Virus record (IMG/VR): IMGVR_UViG_3300029288_000005
Coordinates: 29,024-93,023 of that record
From: a virus
Taxonomy: Duplodnaviria > Caudoviricetes
DNA: 64,000 bases
Direction: 5' to 3' (one strand)
Positions 7,055-33,571 of the stretch are shown here, in pieces. The notes beneath the pieces were generated by a model. It ran no database searches. It had not been told where the DNA came from and saw nothing but the letters and a program-made list of their open reading frames with translations. The position numbers were made by a program, and so were the translations under genes. Every line of letters starts with the position of its first letter. The first letter of the stretch is position 1.

Positions 7055-8308
7055 ATGGCCGCAACTGATGCTAGACCGGTTCCGCGTAAGGGCGTTGCCT
7101 ATCGTCATTATTTTTCTATTCGCAATACAGCGGGCGAGCTAATCACAAGCTGGACTGGACAGGATAGTGAGGCGTCGTTAGACGGTGCGGCGTATGCAGA
7201 TTGTACGAACGAAGCTACGGAGATTGGAACGTCGGGGACAGGCTATATCGACCTAACCACGACCGAAATGAACGTGGATTGTTTGCTGTTAAAAATAACA
7301 GTGACAAACACTGATGCAGTGTTGCCGATATTTGCGATTTACCCAGAAGAGGCCGGGGACTATCGTGTCAGTGACTCACAGAAGGTTGATGTCAATACCA
7401 TCAAGACACAGTCTGTTACTTGTGCCGCAGCAGTAACAATCCATCCCGCCGTGGGCAGCGATTATAAGTTGGGAGTGGAGAATGATGGGGACTTGACCAA
7501 GGTAAATACCGTTGATGGAATCAGTGCTGCAAACTTTGGCAAGTTGGAAGACCTACTGGATGGCACTGGTGCTGTAGCTACTTTTAGTGGAGTAGAAGTC
7601 ATAGCCAGTGATGAGTATGCTGCGGCTTTTAGTATTGTAAACTTGGCTGGAGATGCAGTTTCCATCCAAGGACAACATGGATCAGGAATAGTCATTGAAT
7701 CTACAGAGAGCGACGGTTCCCATGCTTTGTGGATTAGAGTAGCTACAGGGAATCCAAGTGATGCCGTCAAACTGAATGCAACAACAGGTAGTGCTTATGT
7801 GCCTATCAATGTCGCTGCCATATGGCAAGCTCTGACCAGCGGATTAACAACCGTTGGAAGCATTGGTAAGAAGCTAGCAGATTGGGTATTGGGGACTGAT
7901 AATCTGGTCAAGGTATCTGCTGATGTACACACCTCTGGTCAAACTGTAAAGGCAATGACAGATGGGGTAGATTTGATAAAAATCGGGGGCAGTACTGATA
8001 GTTTAGCCAGTTTCAAAGCTAGTGTAGATGCTCTTACTGTAGCTCAGGTAGTTGCTGATGTTGGGAATACCGAAAGTGCTTTCCTTACAGATTTACCAGT
8101 AAAGAGTGTTTACTACTATGGTAGCTCCGATGGGGGTATGGTATTGGTATTTGTTTCTGGGACAACCAATGCTTTCCAGTCAAGGAGAGTGATAGCAAGT
8201 ATTACAAGTGATACTTCTACTTTGATAACTTTGGAAGAAGCTCTCGATAGTGTTCCCGCAGAGGGTGATACGTTTATAATTCTTGGTCGTATCACGGAGC
8301 TTAGCTAG
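7055..8308 (+). CDS. Virion structural protein
   Basis: T/S/G/D-rich beta composition; C-terminal ...VPAEGDTFIILG domain; structural context. Confidence 0.55.
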   Translation: MAATDARPVPRKGVAYRHYFSIRNTAGELITSWTGQDSEASLDGAAYADCTNEATEIGTSGTGYIDLTTTEMNVDCLLLKITVTNTDAVLPIFAIYPEEAGDYRVSDSQKVDVNTIKTQSVTCAAAVTIHPAVGSDYKLGVENDGDLTKVNTVDGISAANFGKLEDLLDGTGAVATFSGVEVIASDEYAAAFSIVNLAGDAVSIQGQHGSGIVIESTESDGSHALWIRVATGNPSDAVKLNATTGSAYVPINVAAIWQALTSGLTTVGSIGKKLADWVLGTDNLVKVSADVHTSGQTVKAMTDGVDLIKIGGSTDSLASFKASVDALTVAQVVADVGNTESAFLTDLPVKSVYYYGSSDGGMVLVFVSGTTNAFQSRRVIASITSDTSTLITLEEALDSVPAEGDTFIILGRITELS

Positions 8309-8936: not shown

Positions 8937-9095
8937 ATGAAAAAACAAACACTTATCACTGTACTAAAAGAAACAGCAGAAACTTTGAGGGGAATTAAGT
9001 TTAATCCTTACCACGACTCAGAAGGCAGGTTCTCTACTGGAGGCTCAGGTGGTCCTAAACTTGCTCCTGATACAGGTGGTGGTACAGGTGGAGGG
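8937..9095 (+). repeat. Dispersed leader cassette, copy 1 (full)
   Basis: High DNA and protein identity to the copies at 10976, 15145 and 32957. Confidence 0.95.
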
Positions 9096-9482
9096 GGTAA
9101 GTTGGGTGGATCCCCGGGAGATAAGGAGAGCTACAATGACAGAATTGAGGGTACACAGAAAGAAGCAGATAGGGAAGTAAAGAGGGCGGAAAAAGTAGTG
9201 GCTACAGTGAAAGCTGCTTTGAGCAAGTTAGAAGCAAAAACATCTAAAAAACAGGTTGCTACACTAAAGGCAAAGCACGAAGAATGTGTTAGTAAAATAT
9301 CAGAATTGAAGAAACAAAAAGAAGCAACTATGAAGCGGATAGAAGCGTTAAAAGCACAGTTAAAGAAATCAGTTCAGAAAGAACTAAATAAAGAAATACT
9401 CACACTGAAGGACATAATCAATAAGTTCAGAGTTGTTACGAAAGAACTCTATACATTGATGGACGAGGTATCAAAACTATGA
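8937..9482 (+). CDS. Leader-cassette protein 1: coiled-coil cargo
   Basis: Starts MKKQTLITVLKETAETLRGIKFNPYHDSEGRF...APDTGGGTGGG, then K/E-rich heptads. Confidence 0.85.
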   Translation: MKKQTLITVLKETAETLRGIKFNPYHDSEGRFSTGGSGGPKLAPDTGGGTGGGGKLGGSPGDKESYNDRIEGTQKEADREVKRAEKVVATVKAALSKLEAKTSKKQVATLKAKHEECVSKISELKKQKEATMKRIEALKAQLKKSVQKELNKEILTLKDIINKFRVVTKELYTLMDEVSKL

Positions 9483-10276
9483 GTATGGTAGATATTAGTG
9501 AAGTCCTGTTAGATTTGGGTCTCTCAGACTCAGTTACAGATGAGGAGCGGGCTATTGTTTCGACTTCTATCAGAAGAGCTGAAGCGGCTATTAAAAGGTT
9601 CCTGGGGTATGATCCATATTGGAAGACCAGGACTGAATACTATCCACAACGAGACTTCTCTATGAGTTATGGTGCCTATGTATGGGAGGTCAACGATACA
9701 CAAGCCTATCAAAGGCACTTATCTGAAGCTGTATCCGATGTACTGATAGTGCAGCACTTGCCTATAAGAAGCATCACTTCCCTATACATTGATTATGATG
9801 GTCGAGCAGGAGCGAGAACAGGATCGTTTTCAGAGGAATCGAAAAAGACTGAAGGTGTTGATTACTGGCCAGACTACAATATGGTGGACGATGATGGAAA
9901 TAATATGTGCTTAAGTGGTATGATAAGGAGTGAGGGGATGTGGCCCTCCAAGCCAGGAACCGTGAAGATCGTTTATACTTCAGGATATACAGCTAAGGAA
10001 TTGAGAGGGCAGTGTTCAGTGGTGGATACTACTGTATTACTGGAGGCAACTGTGGACGAGGCTGTTCGCAGAGCCAAGAAAGTCTTTCTGACAAAGAAAC
10101 AAACTGGTAGGGGATTCATTGCAGGAACCATGACCAGTGAGAGTTTGGGTGATTACAGTTATAGTATAGAGGGATCCTCAGCAGCCAGTCAGTTTGGTGG
10201 TCAGTATGATCTATTGGGATCAACCATGGAGAAACTCAATGACTTTGTGAATTGGGGATATAGAATTGCCGGTTGA
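9479..10276 (+). CDS. Head-tail connector/adaptor (gp6/gp15-like)
   Basis: AEAAIKRFLGY, PIRSITSL, VKIVYTSGY and SESLGDYSYS motifs. Confidence 0.75.
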   Translation: MSMVDISEVLLDLGLSDSVTDEERAIVSTSIRRAEAAIKRFLGYDPYWKTRTEYYPQRDFSMSYGAYVWEVNDTQAYQRHLSEAVSDVLIVQHLPIRSITSLYIDYDGRAGARTGSFSEESKKTEGVDYWPDYNMVDDDGNNMCLSGMIRSEGMWPSKPGTVKIVYTSGYTAKELRGQCSVVDTTVLLEATVDEAVRRAKKVFLTKKQTGRGFIAGTMTSESLGDYSYSIEGSSAASQFGGQYDLLGSTMEKLNDFVNWGYRIAG

Positions 10277-10979
10277 AATAAGATTTGGTATTGTTTTGAC
10301 GTATAAGTGCAACATGGCTTGCAAGGGCTGTAATAGGTTCTTGGATGTAAGGCCATGGGAAGACTCTGATATTACGTTGGATGGATTGGTTGAGGGATAT
10401 AATAGGGTACAGGCAACTGGATTGGTTATCCACAAGTGCCGGGTCTCGGGAGGGGAGCCTCTGCTACATCCCAGATTTGTTGATTGCATGACTATTATAC
10501 AATCAATGTGGAACCAGAACTATGGTGGGCGTACTTGTGTATTTACAAATGGAAAACTCAACAGACCAGAGCCAGCGGGATGGCGTTACAATGTGTCAAC
10601 CAGTGATGGGAAAAGTTACTACTTCCACCCTCCTATGATATCGCCGTATGATCTTGGTATGGAACCACTACAAGGTATGACAATAGCTTGTAGAAGGCAG
10701 TTGGGGTGTGGGAGATTGTTTGATGCCTTTGGTTTCTCTTTCTGCGTGTTTGCTGGAGCCATTGGTAGATTGTTGGGAGTAGATCCTTACAGTCCCACAC
10801 CAGTTGTAGAAGGCATATACGATATCTGTAAGCACTGCGTTTTCTCTCAGGGAATTAAGAAGGCGTTTGTGCTGTTTGATGCAGCAAACAATGGGGAAAT
10901 AGAGTATCCCACAAAGTCTTACCAGTCGGCACTGGAGAAAAAGCAAAATTTTCAGTTAAAGAGGTTTTTTGAAAGATGA
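10266..10979 (+). CDS. Radical SAM protein
   Basis: CNMACKGC (CxxxCxxC), SGGEPLLHP, FTNG, extra C-terminal Cys. Confidence 0.9.
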   Translation: MPVEIRFGIVLTYKCNMACKGCNRFLDVRPWEDSDITLDGLVEGYNRVQATGLVIHKCRVSGGEPLLHPRFVDCMTIIQSMWNQNYGGRTCVFTNGKLNRPEPAGWRYNVSTSDGKSYYFHPPMISPYDLGMEPLQGMTIACRRQLGCGRLFDAFGFSFCVFAGAIGRLLGVDPYSPTPVVEGIYDICKHCVFSQGIKKAFVLFDAANNGEIEYPTKSYQSALEKKQNFQLKRFFER

Positions 10980-11128
10980 AAAAACAAACACTCATTACTG
11001 TACTCAAAGAAACAGCAGAAACTTTAAGAGGAATAAAGTTTAATCCTTACCATGACTCCCTAGGACGTTTTGGAACTGGTGGAGGTGGTCCTAAGTTGGC
11101 TCCTGATACAGGAGGAGGTACTGGAGGT
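10976..11128 (+). repeat. Dispersed leader cassette, copy 2 (full)
   Basis: MKKQTLITVLKETAETLRGIKFNPYHDSLGRFGTGGGGPKLAPDTGGGTGG. Confidence 0.95.
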
Positions 11129-11799
11129 ACACGTTCAAATATAGTTGAATTGGAGCAAAAACAAATATCAGATGAACTTGAAGATCAAACTGATGAATGG
11201 GAGGAAATGCTTTTTGAAGATGCAAGAAAGGCCAATTTGAAACATGGTGTTCCTACTATGGCGGAATCGATAAATAAATGGGTGGGTATAGTAGAGCTTT
11301 TAGAAAACATATAGCCGAAGAGAATTTTGACGACGAAATAGGGGAGGAGGCAAAGCTATTTATGAAAGCCCTGAAGTTGGCCCCTGACTATAAAGGTGAG
11401 GTGTATAGAGGATTGAAAGCTGATTCTAACCAAGCAAACACTATATTGAAAGCCATAAAGTCTAAAGCTGAGTATTGGCAGGAGAAAGCTCCTATGTCTT
11501 GCTCTTTGGATCCTGAAATTGCAATAAAGTTTGCTGGTGCTCGCAAGGATAAACCGTCTGAGTATGAAGTTCTGCTCAAAATCAAAACTAAATCAGGCAA
11601 GTACCTGGGTTCTTTGAATGAAGGGGGGGAGGAAGAAATCATCGCTATGCCCAAAAAGTACAAAATCAAATCCGCGCTTAGGCAACAGGAGGCCAATATA
11701 CATGTTAGATCGGTTTATGGGGACGAAGAGGGAATTGAAAAACCTATTTTGAAGACAAAAGTAACTTTTGATTACATTATTGAACTGGAGGAAGTCTAA
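10976..11799 (+). pseudogene. Leader-cassette protein 2: ADP-ribosyltransferase, split by a -1 frameshift near 11280 (ORFs 10976-11314 and 11278-11799)
   Basis: Full leader; the second frame carries VYRGL, MSCSLD and GGEEEII (R-S-E ART motifs); the frames join at tgggtgggtat. Confidence 0.7.
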
Positions 11800-13190: not shown

Positions 13191-13564
13191 AGTGGTTGGA
13201 ATATCTAGGAATACGTTTCAAGTTGCATAGAATCTCTAAAGCTCGACAGATGGCAGAAGCCTGGCAGAAAGAAGCAAAGTGTCTGCTAAGAAACTTAGAG
13301 AAAAAAGAAGAATTGTTGTTACTAGAGTCCTCAACTCTCAAACGTTTGGTTGAAGACGTAGAGAACAACATTCGAGAAATTAAGTCGTTAAGTGCCAAGT
13401 ATGAAGTGTCTCTGGAAGCGTTGAGGAATGAGAATAAGGTAATGGCTGAGGTGACCATACCAGCTCTAACTTCAGCGTGTCAACTGGGACTTGAGCGATG
13501 GAATGCGGAGACAGCAATACAAGTGAGAAGGCAAATACTGCCCGAGTCAAAAAGTAAGGAGTAG
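13187..13564 (+). CDS. Coiled-coil protein
   Basis: ATGA overlap; heptad pattern. Confidence 0.6.
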   Translation: MKWLEYLGIRFKLHRISKARQMAEAWQKEAKCLLRNLEKKEELLLLESSTLKRLVEDVENNIREIKSLSAKYEVSLEALRNENKVMAEVTIPALTSACQLGLERWNAETAIQVRRQILPESKSKE

Positions 13565-13569
13565 TGTGT

Positions 13570-15144
13570 ATGAACGCTCTAGTAGAATCACTCAACACAA
13601 GAAAAGCTTTTATTTCAACTGTAAGAAATCAAGCAATTGAAATGAAGGCTTCTGGTATTACACTAGATATTGGTGGGGAGGGTACCCTCAGTTCACTGAA
13701 CGAGTGGCAAAGCAGATCAAAGTACTCCCAACGATATGCTCTGTGTCGAGGCATTGTCTACTCAGCGGTAAATGCACTCGCTTCCGAAGGGGCTTCACAG
13801 CCCATAGAAGTAAAGCAACACACTAAGAAAAAGAAGCTACGTGGTACGAAGGCTGCTAAAGATGAGTTGGAAGTGTTGACTGAGCATGTACTAATAGACT
13901 GCTTTGAACGACCCAACCCTATACAGAACAAGTGGCAGTTCTTGTATTCGTTTATTGCAAATCTGGCACTCACTGGTTGGGCGTATATCATAGGAGAGGT
14001 AGACGAAGAGGACAAACCAGTCTTCTACAGCATCCCCACAACGTGGATAACACCAGACCATACAAAAGGACCGTTCGAATCTTTCAAACTACAAAATCCA
14101 CACAAGCCCGGATCTGCTTCAGAGATGTTGGATAAGCGGAACGTGGGATTTGCTTACTTGCCTGATCCGTCGGACATTATGGGAGCACTTTCTCCTGCTT
14201 CTACGCAGTTGCCCGCTATCCAGTCCAACGATAACATCTGGCAGAGTAGGTTGCAGTTTTTTAAGAACGGTATTTTTCCGGGATCTTTGGTTACAGTTGG
14301 ATCTAATCCACACCCGGGAGTTCCTGCTGGTATACGACCAAGGTTAACAGGTGTGCAGAGGCAACAAGTATACAGCATGGTTAAGAAGTTAATGTCTGGA
14401 ATTGCAAACTACGGGGATCCAGCAATACTTGATGGGTTGATTGAAAAGATTGAACCGTTATCGATGAATAGCAAGGAGATGGGTTGGGAGAAGTCAGAAC
14501 CAGCAACCAAGGCAGCAATCCTCAGTGCTTTTTGTGTACATCCCTACATATTGGGAGAAGCAGTGAGCGTGGGAGGTTATGCTCAAGTAGCAAACATAGA
14601 GAAGAGGTTCTATAAGAGGGTCAATACATACTTGTCGATGTTTGATACATTGATGACTTGGTTTGTGCAAGATCTACTAGAGGACACTTCGTTAAAAGTG
14701 TGTGTGAAAGAATGTAACGCTAGTGACCCCACGTTGGATTGGGCTAACTGGAAGTATGCTCGAAGTAATGGTGATATTACACAGAATGAACTTCGAGAAA
14801 AGTTGGGCTTGCCCCCTGATGAAGATGATAATCAGAGCGCCATTGCACCACAACTATTAACACCAATCGTACAACTGTTGGCACAGAAGGCATCTGGTGC
14901 TATTACTGTTGAGCAGATAGAGAATATATTGGTGGGTCTGGGTCTACCAACCGACCTAGCCAAGAAGGTGGCTGGAAAGGACATGCCTCCTCAACAACCT
15001 GTAGAAGGTATGGAAAAACCTGGGAAATCCCCAGAAGAGAAACCTACTGAAACAGAGTTACTCAAAGAAGCAGTAAATCAGTTTAAGAGTTTGCCCGATA
15101 AAGAGATGGGTCGGTTAAAGTCTTTGTTGGAGATAATTGCATAG
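13570..15144 (+). CDS. Portal protein (HK97 family)
   Basis: VYSAVNALA, ERPNPIQ, LALTGWAY, FFKNGIFPG, ILSAFCVHPYILG, ITQNELREKLGLPP. Confidence 0.92.
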   Translation: MNALVESLNTRKAFISTVRNQAIEMKASGITLDIGGEGTLSSLNEWQSRSKYSQRYALCRGIVYSAVNALASEGASQPIEVKQHTKKKKLRGTKAAKDELEVLTEHVLIDCFERPNPIQNKWQFLYSFIANLALTGWAYIIGEVDEEDKPVFYSIPTTWITPDHTKGPFESFKLQNPHKPGSASEMLDKRNVGFAYLPDPSDIMGALSPASTQLPAIQSNDNIWQSRLQFFKNGIFPGSLVTVGSNPHPGVPAGIRPRLTGVQRQQVYSMVKKLMSGIANYGDPAILDGLIEKIEPLSMNSKEMGWEKSEPATKAAILSAFCVHPYILGEAVSVGGYAQVANIEKRFYKRVNTYLSMFDTLMTWFVQDLLEDTSLKVCVKECNASDPTLDWANWKYARSNGDITQNELREKLGLPPDEDDNQSAIAPQLLTPIVQLLAQKASGAITVEQIENILVGLGLPTDLAKKVAGKDMPPQQPVEGMEKPGKSPEEKPTETELLKEAVNQFKSLPDKEMGRLKSLLEIIA

Positions 15145-15303
15145 ATGAAAAAACAAACACTTATCACTGTACTCAAAGAAACAGCAGAAACTTTGAGGGG
15201 AATAAAGTTCAACCCTTACCACGACTCAGAAGGTAGATTCTCTACAGGCTCGGGATCTGGTGCCCACATGGCTCCTGATACAGGAGGAGGCACTGGTGGT
15301 GGA
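15145..15303 (+). repeat. Dispersed leader cassette, copy 3 (full)
   Basis: MKKQTLITVLKETAETLRGIKFNPYHDSEGRFSTGSGSGAHMAPDTGGGTGGG. Confidence 0.95.
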
Positions 15304-16362
15304 AGTAAGTTGGAAGAAAGAAAATTCTCTGATGAACATGTTAATAAACTTGCAAAAGCATGGAAGAATCTGAGCAAGAAAAAGTCAGAGGCTGAATTGG
15401 CTAAGTTGGGGGAGGCTGATAGATTAGAGTTAGCAAAAAAAATCTCATGGGATTTTCATAGGTACAAACCAGAAAGAAAAGAAGAGGTGTGGAAAACTCT
15501 AGGTGATTTAGAAAAGAGTGAGATTATAAAAACACAATCTGCTTTTTGGAATGATCTTAGTGATGCAAAAAAATCAGAGCTACTGGGTGTAATGAACAAT
15601 AAAGAAAAAGAGGAGTTGATAAGTGGTGGAAAGCGTGTTAAAGAGGAGATGGAGAAGTTTAATCAAAAGATTCAAAATAAGGTGGATGTAATACATTCTC
15701 AGGAAGCACAACGAATTAAAGAATCAGAAGATAAATTGATGCCTAGTAAATCAGATTTACTAGATAGACAGAAGGCGAGGGTTCGAATAGATCCTGAAGA
15801 AGGCAGTTTTGATACGTTGGCGGTTTTGCAGAAAAGAAATTACACTAAGAATGTTAGTGATGCTGCTAAAAGTGGATTTACTGAATATTCAAGGAGTGAA
15901 CAAAGTAGAAAAATAAATGGTGCTCTGCGAAAGGGAAAATCTGTAGAAGAAATAAGTCCTGAGATTGCAGAGTTGCAAAAAGCATGTAAATCCCCACTAG
16001 AATCACCCATGATTGTTTATCGAGGAATTGATTCTAAGTTTGCGAGTGAAAATTTTAAGAAAAACACTGTGTATGAAGCCAAAGGATTTGTCTCAACATC
16101 AATGAATCTGGGACAAGCTGTTCGATTTGGAATGGAAGGACTAGCTAAAGAACCTGTAGGAAGCCAAAAAGCTGTTGCAGTCATGGAAATAAAAGCAAAG
16201 AGTGGGTTTTTGGCTGCTCCGGGAGCAGGTGTGCACTCTGGGGAATATGAGGTTTTACAGGCACATAATACACAATACAAGTTAATAGGCATTGATAATA
16301 GTGTTCCTTTACACAGGGGAAGCAGTGAAAATTTAGTAGTTTATATGTTCGAGGAGGTATAA
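15145..16362 (+). CDS. Leader-cassette protein 3: VIP2/Alt-like ADP-ribosyltransferase
   Basis: Full leader; INGALRKG, IVYRGID, FVSTSMN, GEYEVL (R-STS-ExE). Confidence 0.88.
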   Translation: MKKQTLITVLKETAETLRGIKFNPYHDSEGRFSTGSGSGAHMAPDTGGGTGGGSKLEERKFSDEHVNKLAKAWKNLSKKKSEAELAKLGEADRLELAKKISWDFHRYKPERKEEVWKTLGDLEKSEIIKTQSAFWNDLSDAKKSELLGVMNNKEKEELISGGKRVKEEMEKFNQKIQNKVDVIHSQEAQRIKESEDKLMPSKSDLLDRQKARVRIDPEEGSFDTLAVLQKRNYTKNVSDAAKSGFTEYSRSEQSRKINGALRKGKSVEEISPEIAELQKACKSPLESPMIVYRGIDSKFASENFKKNTVYEAKGFVSTSMNLGQAVRFGMEGLAKEPVGSQKAVAVMEIKAKSGFLAAPGAGVHSGEYEVLQAHNTQYKLIGIDNSVPLHRGSSENLVVYMFEEV

Positions 16363-16364
16363 AG

Positions 16365-16502
16365 ATGAAAAAAGACGAGAAAAAACCAGAGAATAACGAA
16401 GACAGGAAAGTGCGAGCAGAGAGGTTCTACGAAGACGAACCTGATGCGTTTGTTATAGTGAAGCCAAAGAAACAAGATGACAAGCAAAGAAACAAAAAGT
16501 AA
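16365..16502 (+). CDS. 45-aa charged peptide downstream of ART (putative inhibitor)
   Basis: GAGGAGG RBS; MKKDEKKPENNEDRKVRAERFYEDEPDAFVIVKPKK...; below the ORF-track length cutoff. Confidence 0.6.
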   Translation: MKKDEKKPENNEDRKVRAERFYEDEPDAFVIVKPKKQDDKQRNKK

Positions 16503-17514
16503 AATAGTTTCTACGTTAGTTGAAACTACTACTCTAGCATTGAAACTAAAGACCAACCTCCTGCAAAAACAGATACGCAGGAAGGTTACAGATAAGGTTC
16601 ACAAGTTACAGGTTGCTAAGGTGGAGAACAAGCTAGCGAAAGCCCTAGAACCAGTGTTCAAACAAGAGCTGCTAAAGTCTGCTGATAGGTTACGGGAGAT
16701 TGTACCACAAGAGAAAGCAAAAGCCAATCCCGTAGCAGAAGCCATAACAGCACAGGTTCTGTCCCATGACCAGGAATTGAAGAATAAGGTAGTCGATGCT
16801 GCTGTTCCCATTCTGGCAGTAGAGATGCTAAAGTCCATGAAGATGGTATTTGTGGAGAATGGTAGAAAAGACATCAGAAACATCCAACAGAAGTTCAACC
16901 CCCATCATGACTCTCTAGGTCGTTTTGCTACTGGTTCAGGCTCAGGCGCCCACATGGCTCCTGATACCGGCGGTGGTACGGGTGGAGGTTCCCTCTTGGT
17001 AGGATCCAGTCAAAGAAACAAAGACGAGCTGTATAAGGAATATCGGGAAGTTTATAAAGAGAAAAAGGGAACAGATCCTAAAAATAATGAAAATTTGGTA
17101 AAAATTGCAGGTGTGAAAATAGTTTGTCCTGGGAATATAAAAAGCACCGCAGAAAGAATGTTGGCCCATGTTATTGCAGACAGCAAAACTTTGATGGATG
17201 GGTTATCGGGAGTGACTGTAACTGTAAAAAACATGGGCCAGCTTTATGGCCAGAGCAAGGGAAACAATCTTTTTGTAGATGAGAAGGTGGTAAAGGAAAA
17301 GGGAGCTGGATTTGGAGCTTCAATTGTAAGGCATGAATTGGAGCATACTTTTCTTACAAGAAAAAAGGTACCATCAGGAAAACAAGAGCCCAGAGTACGT
17401 GCAGTAACAGGCATGTTTGCTGTTGCAAAGTATAGTAGTATGGCAAAAACAAATCCTGCTGATGCAGAAGGGTTTTTGGCAGCAGCAAAAGCTTCTGGAG
17501 TTAAGATAAGATGA
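16477..17514 (+). CDS. MuF-like N-terminal helical region + cassette + HExxH metallopeptidase cargo
   Basis: Helical ENKLAKALEPVFKQE region; internal KFNPHHDSLGRF...GGGTGGG at 16891-16989; C-terminal SIVRHELEHTFL...QE. Confidence 0.7.
   Translation: MTSKETKSKIVSTLVETTTLALKLKTNLLQKQIRRKVTDKVHKLQVAKVENKLAKALEPVFKQELLKSADRLREIVPQEKAKANPVAEAITAQVLSHDQELKNKVVDAAVPILAVEMLKSMKMVFVENGRKDIRNIQQKFNPHHDSLGRFATGSGSGAHMAPDTGGGTGGGSLLVGSSQRNKDELYKEYREVYKEKKGTDPKNNENLVKIAGVKIVCPGNIKSTAERMLAHVIADSKTLMDGLSGVTVTVKNMGQLYGQSKGNNLFVDEKVVKEKGAGFGASIVRHELEHTFLTRKKVPSGKQEPRVRAVTGMFAVAKYSSMAKTNPADAEGFLAAAKASGVKIR
16891..16989 (+). repeat. Dispersed cassette, copy 4 (internal, from K-FNP)
   Basis: KFNPHHDSLGRFATGSGSGAHMAPDTGGGTGGG. 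Confidence 0.95.
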
Positions 17515-18365
17515 GTTATAGTTGGCCTTGTTTATTTGCAGATCTTGATAAAGATTCCATCGAGTTACCAAATGGATGGAAGCCATTGAAACCGCTTGAT
17601 AAAGAGGGCGGTTCTATGTATACAAGAGCAGAAGAAAATGAAAAACAAACACTACTAAAAGCACTCAAAGAAACAGCTGAAACTCTGAGAACTATCAAGT
17701 TCAATCCTTACCACGATTCTTTAGGTAGATTCGCTACAGGTGGGTCGGGAGGAGCTGGTAGGAACTTACAACTATCTCGTGATATATTGGAGCAAACACA
17801 GAAGGATCTTAGGGAACGGAGTTTTCTAGTAGATCGAGATGGAAAAGTTGTATCTGATGTTAGTATTGGGGAAAAAGAAGAGAACGTACTAGAGTCAGGG
17901 GTGGATAGACCATATACAGAGAGTAACAATACCGAGGGGGCGGACTTAAATCTGATACATACACATCCCATTCATACTGATGAAGAAAACCCATATACGG
18001 GATTGGGTGTGGGGGATGTTCTGAGTCTCAAGAATTCTCCTGGTATAAACAGCATTACAGCCATTGATTTAGATGGTCGTGTTCATTCCATAACAAGGGC
18101 CAGTGATGATAAGGAGTTTTTGAAAAAGTACTGGCTTAGATCGGGGGAAATTGAATCGGATCTGCGGTCTAAGATAATCGACGAATTTATTGAGAACAAG
18201 ATAACAAAAGAAGAAGCCAATAGAAAGAAACGACTAATACCCAAAGATTTGATAAAGCAGCTTCTTAAAGAGGGTTTGTTATCAAAGGAAGAGGAATGGG
18301 ATTTGTTGGATGGGAATAAATCTTACAGTCTGAAGTTTAATAACAGTGGAACAGTAAATGCCTAG
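17511..18365 (+). CDS. Short N-terminal peptide fused to leader cassette + JAB/MPN-like cargo
   Basis: KQTLLKALKETAETLRTIKFNPYHDSLGRF at 17643; RERSFLV...LIHTHP...GLGVGD (E, HxH, D; the usual Ser is Gly). Confidence 0.6.
   Translation: MSYSWPCLFADLDKDSIELPNGWKPLKPLDKEGGSMYTRAEENEKQTLLKALKETAETLRTIKFNPYHDSLGRFATGGSGGAGRNLQLSRDILEQTQKDLRERSFLVDRDGKVVSDVSIGEKEENVLESGVDRPYTESNNTEGADLNLIHTHPIHTDEENPYTGLGVGDVLSLKNSPGINSITAIDLDGRVHSITRASDDKEFLKKYWLRSGEIESDLRSKIIDEFIENKITKEEANRKKRLIPKDLIKQLLKEGLLSKEEEWDLLDGNKSYSLKFNNSGTVNA
17643..17753 (+). repeat. Dispersed leader cassette, copy 5 (divergent)
   Basis: KQTLLKALKETAETLRTIKFNPYHDSLGRFATGGSGG. Confidence 0.9.
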
Positions 18366-19974
18366 TACAGCATCCGAGTGGTTGGCAAGTAACCCGAACC
18401 AAGTGGCAGAACTACGAGAAGTTCTGATTGCCAATGGTGTCTCTGTTGACTTTTTGACTGAGTATCCCGACTGGATGTTGGAAAACATAGCACAGCAGTT
18501 GACAGACACTTTCTCCCAAAGCTACTGGGACGACATCGAGAAGAGTTATGGAAACGACGTGAACGAGTTACTAAGAGCTGGTATTCGTAATGGAAAGTCA
18601 ATGGGTGACATCGCTCAAGAGATGACCGACCTCAGCGACGAGTATGCAGAGTCCCGGGCCATGAACATAGCCCGTACGGAATCAGGCCATGCACTGAACG
18701 GTGCCAGAAAAGCCTCTATGGATGAGATAGTAAATGATCCACAGCTAGTGGGCACATTACGGCCTACGTGGCAATCGGCCCTAGGAACCACCACCAGGGA
18801 TTCGCACGCAATACTGGACGGTGTACCGGCTGATAAAGAGGGAATGTGGACACTGTCAGGCTACAAGATTCCATGGCCTGCTCATTATAGTCTTCCACCA
18901 GGTGAGCGTTGCAACTGTCAGTGCACCATAGTCATAGAGTATGGGTTGCAGGACCTAGAAGCTCGGGATATGATAGAGCAATACAATCAGCGAGTGGAAG
19001 AATATAATAAGGATGTAAGGTTAAGGGAGAAATTCAATCCTTACCACGACTCTCTAGGTAGATTTTCTACTGGTTCAGGCTCTGGTGCTCATATGGCCCC
19101 AGACACTGGTGGGGGTACTGGTGGAGGTTCGTCAGATGGTGGAAAGATGCAAGAGGTGACATATGATAAGGACAGCAAGAAATGGTTATTAGGTAATGGA
19201 AAAGAACTACCTGACAACGTGCCCAGAATACCTCCCGCATGGACTGGTGTACGGGTAAACACCAGCAAGAATGCGGATCTGGTAGTAGTGGGTGTGGATG
19301 CCAAGGGAAGAAAACAGAGCATATACAGTGAAGCACATTGGACTAAGGCTGCGGAGGTTAAGTTTGCAAGGGTTAATGAGTTGCGGTCCAAAGTCAAGAA
19401 CATCGAAAAAGAAATCAAAGGGGACTTAAAAGTTCCTGAGCGTAAGGAACAAGCAGCCTGCTTGAGGTTGGTTCTGGAAACAGGTATTAGACCAGGCAGT
19501 GACTCAGATACGGGAGCCGCTAAAAAAGCATACGGGGCCACTACATTAGAAGGCAGACATGTAAAGGTGGTCAATGGTGAAGTTAGACTGCAGTTTGTTG
19601 GTAAGAAGGGTGTTGACATTGATATACCCGTAACAAACAAGGCGCTGGTGGCAGACCTGTTAAAGCGAAAGAAGAAGAGTGGTGATAGTGGTAAGTTATT
19701 TAACACAAGCAATAGAAAGCTGCTCCAATATACACACACTAAAGATGGTGGCTCTTTCAAAACAAAGGACTTCCGCACTGCCAAAGCCACAACCATGGCC
19801 ATTAAGTTGGTTAGTTCCATGTCCAAACCCAAAAACCCGAAAGAGTACAAAAAGTCGGTGAAAGAAGTAGCCACGGTTGTGTCACAGTCGTTGGGTAACA
19901 CACCCACCATTGCACTACAATCGTACATACACTCAGCAGTGTTTACCAAGTGGCGTGCCTCAGCAGGAGTATAG
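18358..19974 (+). CDS. MuF (SPP1 gp7-like) head morphogenesis domain fused via the cassette to type IB topoisomerase
   Basis: MuF: RAMNIARTE, W...TTRDSH, ERCNCQCT. TopIB: RIPPAWT, DAKGRKQSIY, GIRPG, FVGKKG, KDFRT, LGNT...SY (R-K-R-N-Y pentad). Confidence 0.92.
   Translation: MPSTASEWLASNPNQVAELREVLIANGVSVDFLTEYPDWMLENIAQQLTDTFSQSYWDDIEKSYGNDVNELLRAGIRNGKSMGDIAQEMTDLSDEYAESRAMNIARTESGHALNGARKASMDEIVNDPQLVGTLRPTWQSALGTTTRDSHAILDGVPADKEGMWTLSGYKIPWPAHYSLPPGERCNCQCTIVIEYGLQDLEARDMIEQYNQRVEEYNKDVRLREKFNPYHDSLGRFSTGSGSGAHMAPDTGGGTGGGSSDGGKMQEVTYDKDSKKWLLGNGKELPDNVPRIPPAWTGVRVNTSKNADLVVVGVDAKGRKQSIYSEAHWTKAAEVKFARVNELRSKVKNIEKEIKGDLKVPERKEQAACLRLVLETGIRPGSDSDTGAAKKAYGATTLEGRHVKVVNGEVRLQFVGKKGVDIDIPVTNKALVADLLKRKKKSGDSGKLFNTSNRKLLQYTHTKDGGSFKTKDFRTAKATTMAIKLVSSMSKPKNPKEYKKSVKEVATVVSQSLGNTPTIALQSYIHSAVFTKWRASAGV
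19030..19128 (+). repeat. Dispersed cassette, copy 6 (between MuF and TopIB)
   Basis: KFNPYHDSLGRFSTGSGSGAHMAPDTGGGTGGG. Confidence 0.95.
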
Positions 19975-19977
19975 ACT

Positions 19978-20154
19978 ATGGTAGAGATATTCGGAGACGA
20001 CCAGGACGTCAACTTTGGTGGGGTTGACAAGCCCGCTGTTGATTGGAGAAGCAATAACCAAGACGACGGGGACCCTGATGATGAGTTGTTGAGACCCACA
20101 CCATTGGATGTGATAGCAATTCTAGGTTTTGATCCACTGGAACTGGAAGAATGA
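19978..20154 (+). CDS. 58-aa highly acidic peptide downstream of TopIB (putative inhibitor/DNA mimic)
   Basis: AGGAG RBS; MVEIFGDDQDVNFGG...DDGDPDDELLRPTPLDVIAILGFDPLELEE; ATGA overlap with the next gene. Confidence 0.7.
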   Translation: MVEIFGDDQDVNFGGVDKPAVDWRSNNQDDGDPDDELLRPTPLDVIAILGFDPLELEE

Positions 20155-27784: not shown

Positions 27785-29620
27785 GTGCCAATACCCAAGC
27801 CCAATACTGGTGAGAAGAAAGACGATTTTATAGCTCGTTGTATGTCGAACAGTATAATGAACGAAGATTATCCTGACAACAAACAACGAGCAGCAGTTTG
27901 TTATACCCAGTGGAAGGAGAAGTCGGTTAGCATGGACAACAATTGGCTGTTAAGTCAGATCCGAAACCGGAAAGAAAAGCTCACTAGTTTTGGTCGAGGA
28001 ATTACAACAGCAGACGCTTACGTAAAGACCCTTGCTGACGTGGCTGGTTTGGATGTTTGCTATAAGAGGCTCTCAACCAGAACTGTGAGTTTTGATGACA
28101 TACTTCAGAAAGCAGCTAAAACTCTGGTATACTCCAACGACCAGATGGATTTGGAAGCTAAAGCAGATTCTACTTACAAATACAAGGATCTGCTCAAAGG
28201 TCTCAAAGACGTAAAAATACCGAAAAACACCCTCATACTCTTTCGTCACAAGTTGACAACTTCTATAGAGGATCGGGACAAAGACATTCTTCACTCCGAA
28301 GGCATGGAACTCGACCCGAAAATGCTCCTCCTCTGGCAACACGTACACACCATGCCTATCGGTAAGTACGTACACACTGTTTCACAGGACGACAAGAGTG
28401 TGAGGGTTATTTCTGCTATTGTGGATATAAACGAGACATCCCATGATGCGGCTGTGATGATCGACAGTGGAATGGGGCGTTTCAGTCATGGTTTCAAAGC
28501 CACTGAGTTCCAAAAACGAAAGTCTCACAGTGGTAAGGAAACTGGTGGCTTTGAGATCCACCGTGCTGAGATCATGGAGGAGTCGTTGGTTTCCGTTCCT
28601 GCAAACCCGGGTGCTGAAACTGAGGAAATCATTCTCTCACTGGTTGAAGGGGGTAAGTTAACTTCTCCTGTAATGAAGTCAGTGGGTAGATCCATTCGAG
28701 AAAAACGACCTCTGCAGATGCAAGGCATTACCTATAGAGAAACAGTGGGGGATTCCACAAAAGAGCTCACATGCCAGTCTTTTGAGGATTTGAAGAAGCT
28801 GGCCGACCATGGTGTAATTGGTACTAAAAAGGAGAAAGAAGATGAGAACTTGTCAGGAACTGAACAAGATGAGGAAGGAAGAGAAGGCGCCGCATCAGAA
28901 GAAACCAATGACGATGCAGACAAAGCAGCAAATAACAAAACGAAAAACACCAGTGACTCACAAGTAGAGTCAGACAAGAGTGCAAAGATCACAACAAAAA
29001 ACATGCCTGAAGTTTCTAGCAAAGCCTATATTGACTTGCCCAATAGCTATGAAGTAGTAACCTCTTGTTTGTCCAAGTTAATCAATGAGAAGTTTGGTCA
29101 AAGTGCTTGGTTAATTGCTACTTTTACTGGTCGTGCTGTATTTGAAGACTTCAGAGCTGGTCAGAAGAAGTATTACAGTATCGAGTGGGAGAATGTTGAT
29201 GGGAAGATCAAACTCAAGGAAGTGGAGAAAGAAGTTGAGCTAAAAGTTGATGTCGTACAGAAATCAATGAAATTGTTCAATACACTCAACTCGCAAAAAC
29301 AAGGAAGAACACTATCCCGAGCAAATGAAACCAAAATACAGGACGCTAGAGATGATATAAAAGAAGCTTCCAAGATGGAAGGTCTTAGTAGAAGTTGTTT
29401 GGCCTTGTTAAGCAAGGCGTTTAACAGTCTGGGACAGGTGCTCAAGTCACTGGGATCAGAGCCGGAACCCGAAAAGGAAATTACTATCGAGGAAGCAAAG
29501 GTTGTTTTCTTGAAGAATTCAACAGTAGAAGACAGGCAGCAAATGGAAACCCTCCTAAGTGCTATGTCAACTGTGGACAGACGAGCGGAAACCACAAAGT
29601 GGTTCAAGTCTCTAAAATGA
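27785..29620 (+). CDS. Prohead maturation protease (HK97 gp4/S78-like) with N- and C-terminal extensions
   Basis: DRDKDI, LLWQHVHTMPIG (His), FSHGF (Ser), EESLVSVPANP; KQGRTLSRAN C-terminal motif. Confidence 0.9.
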   Translation: MPIPKPNTGEKKDDFIARCMSNSIMNEDYPDNKQRAAVCYTQWKEKSVSMDNNWLLSQIRNRKEKLTSFGRGITTADAYVKTLADVAGLDVCYKRLSTRTVSFDDILQKAAKTLVYSNDQMDLEAKADSTYKYKDLLKGLKDVKIPKNTLILFRHKLTTSIEDRDKDILHSEGMELDPKMLLLWQHVHTMPIGKYVHTVSQDDKSVRVISAIVDINETSHDAAVMIDSGMGRFSHGFKATEFQKRKSHSGKETGGFEIHRAEIMEESLVSVPANPGAETEEIILSLVEGGKLTSPVMKSVGRSIREKRPLQMQGITYRETVGDSTKELTCQSFEDLKKLADHGVIGTKKEKEDENLSGTEQDEEGREGAASEETNDDADKAANNKTKNTSDSQVESDKSAKITTKNMPEVSSKAYIDLPNSYEVVTSCLSKLINEKFGQSAWLIATFTGRAVFEDFRAGQKKYYSIEWENVDGKIKLKEVEKEVELKVDVVQKSMKLFNTLNSQKQGRTLSRANETKIQDARDDIKEASKMEGLSRSCLALLSKAFNSLGQVLKSLGSEPEPEKEITIEEAKVVFLKNSTVEDRQQMETLLSAMSTVDRRAETTKWFKSLK

Positions 29621-29641
29621 ACTGTGAAAGGAACATTTACT

Positions 29642-31282
29642 ATGTTAATCACAAAGAAACTCAAGAAGTGGGCACAAGCCAACTTGGATGTTGCCGCTGA
29701 CGCTGAAGATACTGTTATCAAAGCGGCCATTAGCAAAGCACTTGTCGAAGGTGAGCTTACTGCCAACAAGTATGTCGAACTCACAAAGAGTGAGGAAGAC
29801 GAAGAGGTTGAAGGCATTGCCAAGCAGTTTGGTCGCCTAGCAGACAACCTGGAGAAGGCCATCGAGGCGATTTCGAAGGAAGAGGGTACTGGGGAAACCA
29901 AAGAAACCAAGAAAGAAACCAAGGAAGAGCCTCTTCAAACCAAAGAAACCAAGACTGAAACAAAGGAAACCAAAAAGGAAACCAAGGAAACCAAAGTACT
30001 TTCCAAAATGGCGAAGATGATGGTTGAGTTGGGCGGTGTTTCCGAGGTCAATGAGGAAGAAAAGGCTATTGACATTCGTGTCAAGGAAGCAGTCGAATCC
30101 TATGACCGAACTCGAAAATCCCTCACTTATCCGCAGTTCACCAAAAACATGAAGCCCCATGTCCTTGCTGGTCAGGTTGTGGAGAATCTTGGGCGCCCGA
30201 TGAACGGGCCCAGTGCTTGCGATAAGGCACTGGCAGGAGTTTGGGCTAAGTTCCAGCTCTTGTCTGTCACACCTCGATTGGCAGGATCTCCTATTCGTGC
30301 GTGGGAACGCTTGTCCGAACACGAGAAATCCCTCTTGGCCCACTTGGCTGAGAAAGAAGATTGGGATGACTCGGTTGGTGGAAAGACAAAGACCTGCCAA
30401 GGTTATCCTGGAGGTATCAAAGCCCTCATCGACGATGCCACCAGTGGTGGAACAGAAGCGGCTCCTATCGTGTTTGACGATCAGGTGATCCAAGCCCCGT
30501 TGCTCAACGGTGAGTTGTACCCCTTGGTTACCGTCAAACCCTTGGATCGCGGTCGTCGGGTTGAAGGTGTGGCTACCGGAACGGTAACTAGCAGTTGGGG
30601 TGGTGTTGATGACACCGCTATCAGCCTGTTTGATACTACTTCCTACATTACTGCTTTCGACACCACGATCTTCAGGTGGGAAGGTTCGATTCGCCTCGGA
30701 CTGGATTTCCTCAGTGACACACCGATTGACTTCGGTGCTCATATCACTGCCCAGTACGGTGAGAGATTGCTGGAAGATCTGGATGATGTTATTGCTACAG
30801 GCAATGGCACCACCCAACCCGAAGGCATAATGAACAAGACAGGTGCCACTAGCGTTGCTTGGGGCGGCGCTACCAGCATAGGTAATTATGAATCACTGAG
30901 ATTCGGTGTTGCCAAAGCCGAGCACGGAGCTGCCGTCAAGTCTTCAGCAGTCTTCTGTGGTAACGAAACTTCCTATGCGAGGGCAAGAGCTTTGGCAGTG
31001 GGAACCACCGATGCTCGTAGACTGTTTGGTATGGACTATGACTCTTATTCTCTTATGGAACGACCCTATAAGATCAATGAGAGCATGGATAATACCTATG
31101 CGTTCTACGCAATCATGGCCCGCTACCGCATGTATCGTCGTAAGGGACTTACCGTTCGAACCAGCACCGAAGGCGATACACTTATGCGTCGTAATGAGAT
31201 GCTCATTATCGCCATGGCTCGTTATGGTGGTCAAATGGAACGGGGTGCCTGTGTTGCTTATACAACCTCAGCACCGGCCTAA
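29642..31282 (+). CDS. Major capsid protein (HK97 fold) with long N-terminal scaffold/delta region
   Basis: K-ALIDDATSGG..AAP, GNGTTQPEGI, ARYGG; follows the protease. Confidence 0.92.
   Translation: MLITKKLKKWAQANLDVAADAEDTVIKAAISKALVEGELTANKYVELTKSEEDEEVEGIAKQFGRLADNLEKAIEAISKEEGTGETKETKKETKEEPLQTKETKTETKETKKETKETKVLSKMAKMMVELGGVSEVNEEEKAIDIRVKEAVESYDRTRKSLTYPQFTKNMKPHVLAGQVVENLGRPMNGPSACDKALAGVWAKFQLLSVTPRLAGSPIRAWERLSEHEKSLLAHLAEKEDWDDSVGGKTKTCQGYPGGIKALIDDATSGGTEAAPIVFDDQVIQAPLLNGELYPLVTVKPLDRGRRVEGVATGTVTSSWGGVDDTAISLFDTTSYITAFDTTIFRWEGSIRLGLDFLSDTPIDFGAHITAQYGERLLEDLDDVIATGNGTTQPEGIMNKTGATSVAWGGATSIGNYESLRFGVAKAEHGAAVKSSAVFCGNETSYARARALAVGTTDARRLFGMDYDSYSLMERPYKINESMDNTYAFYAIMARYRMYRRKGLTVRTSTEGDTLMRRNEMLIIAMARYGGQMERGACVAYTTSAPA
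29893..29996 (+). repeat. Imperfect (K)ETK low-complexity repeat in the capsid scaffold region
   Basis: ETKETKKETKEEPLQTKETKTETKETKKETKETK. Confidence 0.8.
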
Positions 31283-32956: not shown

Positions 32957-33118
32957 ATGAATATGAAACAAACACTTATCACTGTCCTCAAAGAAACAGC
33001 AGAAACTTTGAGGGGAATAAAGTTCAACCCTTACCACGACTCCTCTGGTAGATTCTCTACAGGAGGCTCGGGTGGTCCTAAGTTAGCACCCGATACAGGG
33101 GGAGGCACTGGAGGTGGA
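32957..33118 (+). repeat. Dispersed leader cassette, copy 7 (full)
   Basis: MKQTLITVLKETAETLRGIKFNPYHDSSGRFSTGGSGGPKLAPDTGGGTGGG. Confidence 0.95.
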
Positions 33119-33571
33119 GGAAAACCTGCAAAAAAACCACCCAAGTTGATGGATATTGATGAGGACACTGGTTTGGTGGTTAAGCCTTCCAGTTCACCTC
33201 CCAAGTTTAACGCACCAACTGAGAGGGGAAGAACCTTACAGAAAAGTAGCTACTATTCTTCTAAATCCGCTATGGATTTAAGTTCAAAAACAAATAATAG
33301 TAGGGCGGTACAGTTATCAAACAAAGCTATGGAAGCCTCTACAAAAGCAGCTTCTTCTGGCAATAACCCCAAAATTGCCAGCAAATATCATAACAAGGCT
33401 GCTGAATTACATGAGCAAGCAGAGATGATACACGTGGAAGAGTATCCCGCAGCAAAGAATTCCAAGAAAAAACTGGCACACGCAAAAGCTGAGTCCGCTC
33501 ATAAAAAAGCGGCTGATCTACACAGACAAGCAGCAACTGCTTTGAGTAATACCATTGAGTACTTTGAATAA
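32957..33571 (+). CDS. Leader-cassette protein 7: His/Ala-rich helical cargo
   Basis: Full leader; HNKAAELH, HAKAESAH, HKKAADLH repeats. Confidence 0.85.
   Translation: MNMKQTLITVLKETAETLRGIKFNPYHDSSGRFSTGGSGGPKLAPDTGGGTGGGGKPAKKPPKLMDIDEDTGLVVKPSSSPPKFNAPTERGRTLQKSSYYSSKSAMDLSSKTNNSRAVQLSNKAMEASTKAASSGNNPKIASKYHNKAAELHEQAEMIHVEEYPAAKNSKKKLAHAKAESAHKKAADLHRQAATALSNTIEYFE

Follow-up and report, generated by a model that had tools for sequence, protein, structure and literature searches.

Although MuF-fused toxins and polyvalent virion proteins have been described, how the phage head comes to recruit new cargo has not, to our knowledge, been explained. In phage T4, internal proteins and Alt carry a capsid-targeting sequence that is removed by the gp21 prohead protease.

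SPP1 gp7 is brought to the procapsid by binding the portal, and a few copies are found inside the capsid (PMC6316719). MuF-fused toxins are thought to be delivered via a gp7-like procapsid route (PMC6316719, PMC5576092). The MuF polymorphic toxins are carried by temperate phages (Jamet et al., 2017, PMC5576092). In polyvalent virion proteins, chains of effectors (ADP-ribosyltransferase (ART), metallopeptidase and others) are fused to MuF/portal domains in phage head modules, and the embedded metallopeptidases have been proposed to act as processing enzymes (Iyer et al., 2017, PMC5512222).

Here we describe a MuF locus of an uncultured phage, represented by a 93-kb virus record with direct terminal repeats, of which a stretch of 64,000 nucleotides was analyzed (the window). 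The window system is a variation on the known MuF-effector fusions and polyvalent virion proteins. As in the MuF polymorphic toxins (Jamet et al., 2017, PMC5576092), the gene adjoins the portal and combines a MuF N-terminal carrier with a variable enzymatic C-terminal domain, small ORFs trail the cargo genes (16365-16502 and 19978-20154 in the window) and delivery through the capsid is proposed. Indeed, the MuF core of the window is followed by a linker and a PF01028 topoisomerase IB, and the cargo at this position varies among relatives. The window differs from these toxins in that MuF itself is found in two carriers, that a free 21-aa leader represents a third kind of carrier and that a conserved linker stands before every cargo, while relatives hold cargo inside two MuF loops. 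The strings ‘split’, ‘linker’ and ‘cleav’ are absent from the text of Jamet et al., 2017 (PMC5576092). Chains of the polyvalent type occur among the relatives, where two to six linker-separated units share one ORF (ORFs of L003, L004 7939-10617 and representative P0122), whereas the window proteins carry one effector per polypeptide. The text of Iyer et al., 2017 (PMC5512222) yielded no defined linker motifs, no insertion points within MuF and no carriers that consist of the leader only.

The T4 capsid-targeting sequence is alike in principle: a short N-terminal peptide shared by unrelated cargo, with a protease site behind it, directs enzymes, among them an ADP-ribosyltransferase, into the head for injection. 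It has no sequence relationship to the system described here, in which the protease is of the S78/HK97 type, the proposed cut is after Lys and not Glu, the carriers include MuF halves, and packaging and cleavage are proposed by analogy. SPP1 gp7 has a homologous MuF core and is likewise encoded beside the portal, but it is a single, cargo-free polypeptide (PMC6316719).

Layout of the MuF locus

The locus comprises the following features.

13564..15144, + strand: portal protein (PF04860, E 1.5e-26)
15145..16362, + strand: cargo gene with 21-aa leader, linker and ADP-ribosyltransferase (leader/linker motifs; PF03496, E 2.8e-11)
16477..16893, + strand: MuF N-terminal domain (MuF-N), 139 aa, three helices, last residue Lys139 (alignment A2; profile; AF2)
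16894..16992, + strand: linker copy with FNPHHD, GRF and a Gly-rich stretch (DNA repeat families D1 and D2)
16993..17514, + strand: cargo 1, probable zincin-type metallopeptidase with HExxH (Tox-MPTase3, E 0.01, below the Pfam cutoff)
17511..18365, + strand: intervening cargo gene with a leader-like segment, a partial linker and a domain without assigned function
18358..19029, + strand: MuF core, the second half of MuF (PF04233; PHROG MuF profiles; alignment A1)
19030..19131, + strand: Lys, then a linker copy
19132..19974, + strand: cargo 2, type IB topoisomerase (PF01028, E 9.7e-20)

The helical region and the core of MuF are thus encoded by separate ORFs (16477 and 18358) and not by one polypeptide. 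ORF 16477-17514 (345 aa) runs from MuF-N through the linker into cargo 1. A reading of the sequence alone had described about 138 helical residues that switch at FNPHHD into a peptidase, and the ORF is organized in this way: residues 1-139 are predicted by AF2 to be helical (helices H4-75, H85-94 and H99-127), and FNPHHD directly follows the Lys139 codon (16891-16893). We call the peptidase probable only, because cargo 1 matches Tox-MPTase3 below the Pfam cutoff (E 0.01-0.02). The core had been placed about 1.4 kb downstream, in agreement with the 1,464 nt that separate the end of MuF-N from the start of ORF 18358-19974, in which PF04233 is found at aa 67-191 (45.9 bits, Pfam cutoff 29.6). The start of the intervening cargo gene overlaps the stop of the upstream gene (ATGA), and its own stop falls within codons 2-3 of the MuF core gene. 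In the window the leader-ART gene separates the portal gene from the MuF-N gene; MuF-N follows the portal directly in the relatives L002, L003, L004, L009 and L014.

MuF-N and core in single MuF proteins

We built a MuF-N profile from alignment A2 and searched it against cluster representatives of 1.8 billion proteins, which yielded 236 representatives at E <= 1e-3, of which 155 reach E <= 1e-10. Architectures were counted in the best 150 of the 236. A MuF core is present in the same ORF as MuF-N in 89 of these 150, and in 66 only a short Lys-rich loop separates MuF-N from the core (58 contiguous forms and 8 with an insert inside MuF-N). An in-frame insert at the N/core junction was seen in 22 of the 89. 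MuF-N stands alone in an ORF of ~130-160 aa in 25, and in 27 it carries an extension without a core, as in the window, although some of the representatives scored as lacking a core may be truncated by contig ends. The contiguous representatives exceed the Pfam MuF threshold, with the domain at ~aa 195-330. Given the 66 relatives with contiguous MuF-N and core among the best 150, the window locus is a split member of the PF04233 family rather than a non-member.

In many relatives, the counterparts of the starts of ORFs 16477 and 18358 lie next to each other within a single MuF protein, which the sequence-only reading had named as support for a split. In PHROG MuF profiles, the alignment with ORF 18358 begins only at about position 145-200 of the profile, so that this ORF represents a core lacking roughly 85-130 N-terminal residues. 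An AF2 model of one contiguous member folds N and core as one confident unit (pLDDT 86, pTM 0.83), with low confidence exactly at the N/core junction. In an hhalign comparison, the contiguous family matched the MuF protein of Lactococcus phage P1045 with 98.4% probability over the end of N and the junction.

Pfam and PHROG scans with single MuF-N proteins from nine phages gave no meaningful match. MuF-N is therefore assigned to MuF by its co-occurrence with the core in one polypeptide and by profile comparisons rather than by a curated family. A tblastn search of MuF-N against 50,697 phage records gave no match, and a word-indexed protein search recovered the window’s own protein only. Core and N profiles gave only chance helical matches to the sequences of solved structures, and Foldseek of the contiguous-MuF model against the PDB returned nothing at E <= 0.001.

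Taken together, ORF 16477 (in its first 139 residues) and ORF 18358 (in its first ~224) very probably hold the two halves of one MuF (SPP1 gp7-like) head protein, split by modules in the manner proposed below. Orphan helical ORFs beside portal genes can be explained as MuF N-domains in the same way, and an apparently ‘short’ MuF in an annotation may have its other half upstream.

Cargo insertion and the proposed origin of the split

A search with the MuF-core alignment gave 14 loci from relatives; a single-sequence portal search gave one. The split layout of the window recurs in the independent metagenomic relatives L002, L003, L004, L009 and L014. A single ORF of 989 aa in L010 comprises N, linker, ART and core, and in L011 the core carries the second half of N, fused in frame. 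Additional cassettes lie within N in L003. The relatives have two insertion hot spots, the N/core loop and a second loop inside MuF-N, and both coincide with loops in the AF2 model. Cargo is exchanged among carriers: in L004 the topoisomerase IB follows N, in L003 it follows the second half of N, and in the window it comes after the core. BLASTP showed no homology between the window cargo behind MuF-N and its positional counterparts in L002 and L003; the cargo behind MuF-N is therefore polymorphic. The family thus displays cargo recruitment stepwise: the same enzymes follow a whole MuF, sit in two of its loops, or are attached to half a MuF or to a 21-aa leader.

Because the same two pieces form one protein in related phages, we conclude that MuF was broken up by inserted enzyme cassettes, and a split of MuF into two carriers by cargo-cassette insertion is strongly supported. 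In the mechanism that we propose, the usual MuF is a single protein of ~340-360 aa with a three-helix N domain, a short flexible Lys-rich loop and the Pfam core. Modules of ‘conserved linker plus enzyme’ would join a carrier behind a Lys at its C-terminal end; this carrier may be MuF-N, half of MuF-N, the MuF core, an earlier cargo or the free 21-aa leader. A module placed in the N/core loop would give an N-linker-cargo-core protein, and a stop codon behind the cargo would turn this one gene into two. The window then represents the split state, with three translationally coupled genes: MuF-N with the probable metallopeptidase, the leader-type cargo gene, and the MuF core with topoisomerase IB. 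By analogy with SPP1 gp7 and the T4 capsid-targeting sequence, the carriers would bring the cargo into the procapsid, the S78 prohead protease would cut behind the Lys that precedes each linker, and the enzymes would be ejected into the host along with the DNA.

That the change was a fission and not a fusion we infer from the distribution of forms, not from a rooted tree. The N-domain and core genes might instead have been separate neighbours ancestrally, with the single-ORF forms as secondary fusions and the window as the original two-gene state to which cargo was added on each side. The stand-alone N ORFs among the best 150 representatives and the separate N genes of L008 and L013 fit such an origin, and the start of the core has a conserved stop-start overlap (AATGCCTAG), as one would expect of a settled two-gene arrangement. 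Separate genes without cassettes had been named as evidence that would speak against a split, and they do exist, both in these 25 representatives and in L008, where N and core are neighbouring overlapping ORFs and the cassette is absent. We nevertheless read the stand-alone N genes as derived, since contiguous forms dominate among distant relatives and a cultured-phage MuF is contiguous through the same N/core junction. Contiguous forms are also the largest class, the closest 30 representatives being mostly split and the more distant ones mostly contiguous. The PHROG MuF families have 145-200 profile positions ahead of the core, and the AF2 model treats N and core as one unit. Moreover, the N ORF of L008 ends two residues into the segment that is linker in its nearest relative L004, and judged by its sequence this end looks like a cassette-deletion scar. 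An ancestral two-gene state is thus improbable. The N-domain tree shows at least ~24 state changes.

We also considered that the split might be an assembly or sequencing artefact, e.g. a frameshift in a single MuF gene, for which we found no support and which has a negligible chance of being correct. The N ORF stays in frame through a complete linker and into a cargo of 170 aa that ends in a stop of its own, an intact gene of 284 aa precedes the core, and the layout recurs in the five independent relatives. The proposal of the sequence-only reading that a single MuF was interrupted at an internal Lys is supported by the contiguous relatives, in which the junction is a short Lys-rich loop of low model confidence.

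Linkers, leaders and head genes

Further genes of the window carry the leader and linker or encode head proteins.

8937..9482, + strand: leader-linker gene with a coiled-coil, scaffold-like tail
10976..11314, + strand: leader-linker ORF, overlapping an ART-like ORF (11278-11799)
27785..29620, + strand: prohead serine protease (S78) with a long C-terminal extension (PF04586, 31.5 bits, cutoff 21)
29624..31282, + strand: major capsid protein (PF05065 from aa 281)
32957..33571, + strand: leader-linker gene, cargo without assigned function

The window holds seven copies of the NPxHDxxGRF / Gly-rich linker, each after an invariant Lys, and five copies of the shared leader. Each genome uses one linker type, with three mutually exclusive types overall, and cargo is always joined through the one conserved Lys-linker of its genome. 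A literature search for the linker motif strings returned nothing relevant.

The start of ORF 16477 had been reported to align without gaps to the leader, which was taken to derive from the MuF helix; the accompanying idea that this helix is the capsid- or portal-binding part of MuF is unsupported. The alignment is real but weak: residues 7-25 share 5/19 identical and 4 conservative positions with the leader. In a leader scoring matrix these residues are the best register (score 21.0, 99th percentile of control blocks 14.8), but genome-wide the helix ranks only 11th of 45,512 windows, or sixth once the five true leaders are counted. Among 20-mers other than leaders, the MuF-N helix scores highest in L002 (32.8, next 22.8) and in L008 (27.5, next 17.2), and in L004 it comes second, behind a genuine extra leader only. 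Leader-matrix scores exceed the 95th percentile of controls in 54% of 116 representatives, and the best leader match within the N domain is the first block in 42 of 77. The aligned register places the final Lys of the leader on the invariant Lys25 of MuF-N. The resemblance is thus specific to the register, and it is possible, though we hold this tentatively, that the leader is a minimal carrier that either was copied from the first helix of MuF-N or mimics it.

Several comparisons point the other way, and descent from the MuF helix is not established. Among 5,244 six-frame peptides, an HMM of helix 1 recovered MuF-N helices and no leader. Hhalign of 13 leaders against MuF-N was not significant and matched another segment (E 0.04, 1% probability), and within genomes leaders match their own helix no better than the helices of other genomes (p = 0.19). 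In the window the C-terminal tail of the portal scores as high as the MuF helix (22.0 versus 21.0), and the leaders of L004 show no resemblance to helix 1. Together with the low identity of 5/19, these results make it on balance probable that the leader is unrelated to MuF-N in origin, both being N-terminal, Lys-rich amphipathic helices that end in Lys and possibly converged on a partner or protease.

If the leader does come from the first MuF helix, it could serve as a portable tag for loading the capsid, docking on the same partner as that helix (portal or scaffold). Leader and genome-specific Lys-linker would then form a modular ‘address label plus release site’, MuF would have been dismantled into two such labels, and each of the three linker types would be matched to the phage’s own processing protease. 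We regard this larger scheme as speculative and rather doubtful; if true, leader and Lys-linker would let a phage load any enzyme into its head. The system offers concrete candidates for the signal that targets proteins to the capsid of HK97-type phages and for the release site, and by analogy the S78 prohead protease is a candidate enzyme for the cut after the pre-linker Lys. The major capsid protein carries a GIK motif just ahead of its HK97-fold domain.

A probably divided MuF gene and its neighbours

The virus record is complete, 93,023 bp long and carries direct terminal repeats; the window covers its right-hand 64 kb, in which every head gene lies on the plus strand. The genes from the portal to the MuF core are as follows.

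13564-15144, +, portal gene (PF04860)
15145-16362, +, cargo gene: 21-aa leader, conserved linker, ADP-ribosyltransferase (ART)
16477-17514, +, ORF 16477: helical N-terminal MuF domain (MuF-N), linker, HExxH domain
17511-18365, +, ORF 17511, between the MuF-N ORF and the MuF core ORF
18358-19974, +, ORF 18358: MuF core, linker, type IB topoisomerase

Residues 1-139 of ORF 16477 form three predicted helices in an AF2 model (H4-75, H85-94 and H99-127). An earlier sequence-only reading had described a helical start that changes at FNPHHD, with the MuF core downstream, and we confirmed this observation, Lys139 being the point where MuF-N gives way to the linker. The domain behind the linker carries an HExxH motif but matches a metallopeptidase toxin family only below threshold (E 0.01), and we therefore regard this cargo as a probable peptidase. 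Pfam MuF is found at aa 67-191 of ORF 18358, exceeding the curated cutoff, and is followed by the linker and the topoisomerase. PHROG MuF profiles match this ORF from profile position ~145-200 onward only, so that some 85-130 residues at the N-terminus of a normal MuF protein are absent from it. ORF 17511 begins in an overlap with the stop of the preceding ORF (ATGA) and terminates within codons 2-3 of the core gene; the three ORFs are tightly coupled. In all close relatives the core gene starts with ATGCCTAGY (window 18357-18365; locus L008 699-708; locus L004 11165-11173), so that the upstream ORF always stops at TAG within codons 2-3. Judged from sequence, this 8-nt overlap appears to be a conserved stop-start coupling signal.

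MuF-N and core in related phages

Single-sequence searches with the 139-aa piece as query gave no match. Relatives were therefore gathered via the MuF core and their metagenomic loci (L002-L015) were then inspected. Every close relative has a MuF-N homologue adjoining its portal gene, and the arrangements of MuF-N and core form a series. L008 carries them as adjacent overlapping ORFs with no cassette, and L010 encodes MuF-N, linker, ART and core in a single 989-aa ORF. The core of L011 is fused in frame to the second MuF-N half while the first half is a separate ORF. As in the window, MuF-N in L002, L004, L009 and L014 is followed by linker, cargo and a stop, with the core as separate next gene; L003 has cassettes inside MuF-N too.

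A profile of eight MuF-N domains (A2) was searched against 1.84 billion cluster representatives and yielded 236 matches at E <= 1e-3 (155 at E <= 1e-10), nearly all at the protein N-terminus. The best 150 of the 236 were scored with MuF-N and core profiles. In 89 of these 150 the core lies in the same polypeptide, supporting the proposal of the sequence-only reading that aa 1-138 of ORF 16477 and the start of ORF 18358 are halves of one MuF. As that reading had anticipated, the two pieces match adjacent parts of one protein: MuF-N directly abuts the core (gap <= 45 aa) in 58/150, for example in a protein of 341 aa (N 2-121, core 125-338). A further 8/150 are contiguous at the junction with an insert inside MuF-N, 22/150 have an in-frame insert at the junction, 25/150 are stand-alone N ORFs and 27/150 have MuF-N plus an extension without core, like the window. 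Four contiguous examples exceed the Pfam MuF threshold, with the domain at ~aa 195-330 of 340-360, and one representative is a single chain N1-ART-N2-core-topoisomerase IB.

Where the protein is contiguous, a short loop rich in Lys forms the junction between the last N helix and the conserved core start. The AF2 model of a contiguous member (pLDDT 86, pTM 0.83) suggests, by its high pTM, that N and core form one unit. Confidence falls to 47-69 exactly at the junction (residues ~121-160), and the second insert class sits in a loop (residues 66-73), so that each of the two insertion hot spots is a loop in the model. The core itself is broken by a large insert in L008 (701-2266), L009 (4424-6709), L013 (8738-11131) and L014 (6564-9407), after a conserved Cys-x-Cys motif or earlier. 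By the look of their sequence these inserts start in a putatively intein-like manner, with Cys and then a hydrophobic Hint-like start.

Of the 30 representatives nearest to the window most are split (22/30 without core), and more distant bins are mostly contiguous. The contiguous family aligned at 98.4% probability with the MuF of the cultured Lactococcus phage P1045, over the end of MuF-N and the junction, and the single-ORF MuF of L015, which is more distant, matches MuF-N weakly but colinearly (E 1.3e-3) directly ahead of its core. At least ~24 changes of the junction state are needed on the N-domain tree, a rough estimate given the short alignment. In L008 the N ORF stops two residues after the Lys, where its codons match the first linker codons of L004, and the core start follows directly; this end may be a cassette-deletion scar. 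Taken together, these observations lead us to favour the view that cassette insertion split a single gene, gain and loss being frequent, a direction of change that we infer, as the tree is unrooted.

Linkers and cargo

One linker is common to seven window ORFs. It consists of Lys, FNP(Y/H)HD, GRF and a Gly-rich stretch, stands after the leader in five, after the MuF core in one and after MuF-N in one, and with its Lys precedes every cargo. Across L002-L015 and the window we found three unrelated linker types, NPxHDxxGRF, HLxGxHxQxxHG and CPTGxGGG, the last with a second Cys motif behind it. No genome mixes types across its sites (up to 11, in L012), which argues that the linker would be recognised by a genome-specific factor rather than acting as a passive spacer. 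The linker DNA repeats of the window (53-103 nt, 63-87% identical) could also be recombination sites for cassette exchange. Topoisomerase IB follows MuF-N in L004, the second MuF-N half in L003 and the core in the window, which shows that cargo is exchanged among carriers. Between portal and MuF-N, L004 has a mini-ORF (7654-7833) of leader, variant linker and ~12 residues, an 'empty' cassette without cargo. Weak tblastn matches to the NPxHDxxGRF linker (E 0.3-0.5) lie within annotated portal genes of an uncultured Caudoviricetes record (MW202897.1, 16862-16930) and a Nitrososphaera provirus (FR725450.1, 5644-5697), a hint that this linker may be used far beyond this clade.

Origin of the leader and a possible loading route

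The sequence-only reading had also derived the leader from the MuF N-terminal helix. Four leaders of the window's type were turned into a scoring matrix, with which every 20-mer in the six reading frames of each locus was scored. MuF-N helix 1 was the best match after the true leaders in L002 (32.8 vs next 22.8; 10,868 windows) and L008 (27.5 vs next 17.2; 4,935 windows). In L004 it came second to a previously unnoticed mini-gene of leader and linker without cargo. In the window itself it scored only 21.0 (11th of 45,512 windows). Over 116 representatives the helix-1 block had a median of 10.1 vs -1.8 for control blocks and beat the control 95th percentile in 54%, the enrichment p-values not being independent evidence since the representatives are related. 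The best leader match inside MuF-N was the first block in 42/77 representatives, with a lesser peak where the first half ends, and in the register of the sequence-only reading the last Lys of the leader falls on Lys25, which is among the five invariant MuF-N columns. Several results speak against the derivation: the score in the window is low and is exceeded by that of the portal tail, a helix-1 HMM search matched no leader, hhalign of 13 leaders from seven phages with MuF-N was not significant and chose a different segment, and leaders matched the helix of their own genome no better than those of others (p = 0.19). We consider common origin or mimicry possible but somewhat improbable.

The helix in the portal C-terminal tail is repeatedly one of the segments that most resemble a leader in a given genome (window 15037-15096; L002 ~6192; L014 ~5251; L009 ~400; L003 ~3862; L008 ~55); its window score of 22.0 exceeds that of the MuF-N helix. 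It may be a third context of the leader motif or just a similar amphipathic helix.

SPP1 gp7 is brought into the procapsid by the portal, and MuF-fused toxins are thought to take the same route (PMC6316719, PMC5576092). Metallopeptidases within polyvalent virion proteins have been proposed as their processing enzymes (PMC5512222). Among the products of the window's genes are an S78 prohead protease and an HK97-type capsid protein with a GIK motif just ahead of the fold domain; the leader likewise ends in GIK. MuF-N, MuF core and leader would act as carriers that load enzymes into the procapsid, the protease would free the cargo at the Lys-linker boundary, and the enzymes would exit together with the DNA. 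We group this system with MuF polymorphic toxins and polyvalent virion proteins, and by analogy it would work like the T4 capsid-targeting sequence. In the papers on MuF toxins (PMC5576092) and polyvalent proteins (PMC5512222) we did not find a MuF divided into two carriers, cargo set into MuF at two defined loops, a linker conserved within each genome or leader-only carriers.

Amid the structural and cargo genes, a radical-SAM-like gene (window 10266-10979; PF04055, E 1e-5, below cutoff) is kept at the same place in L002. Next to it, a leader-linker ORF (10976-11314, 112 aa) overlaps an ART-like ORF (11278-11799, 173 aa) that matches a PHROG minor head protein (E 2.7e-7). Because the L002 homologue is a single 253-aa ORF (2212-2973), the window copy may be frameshifted or expressed by frameshifting.
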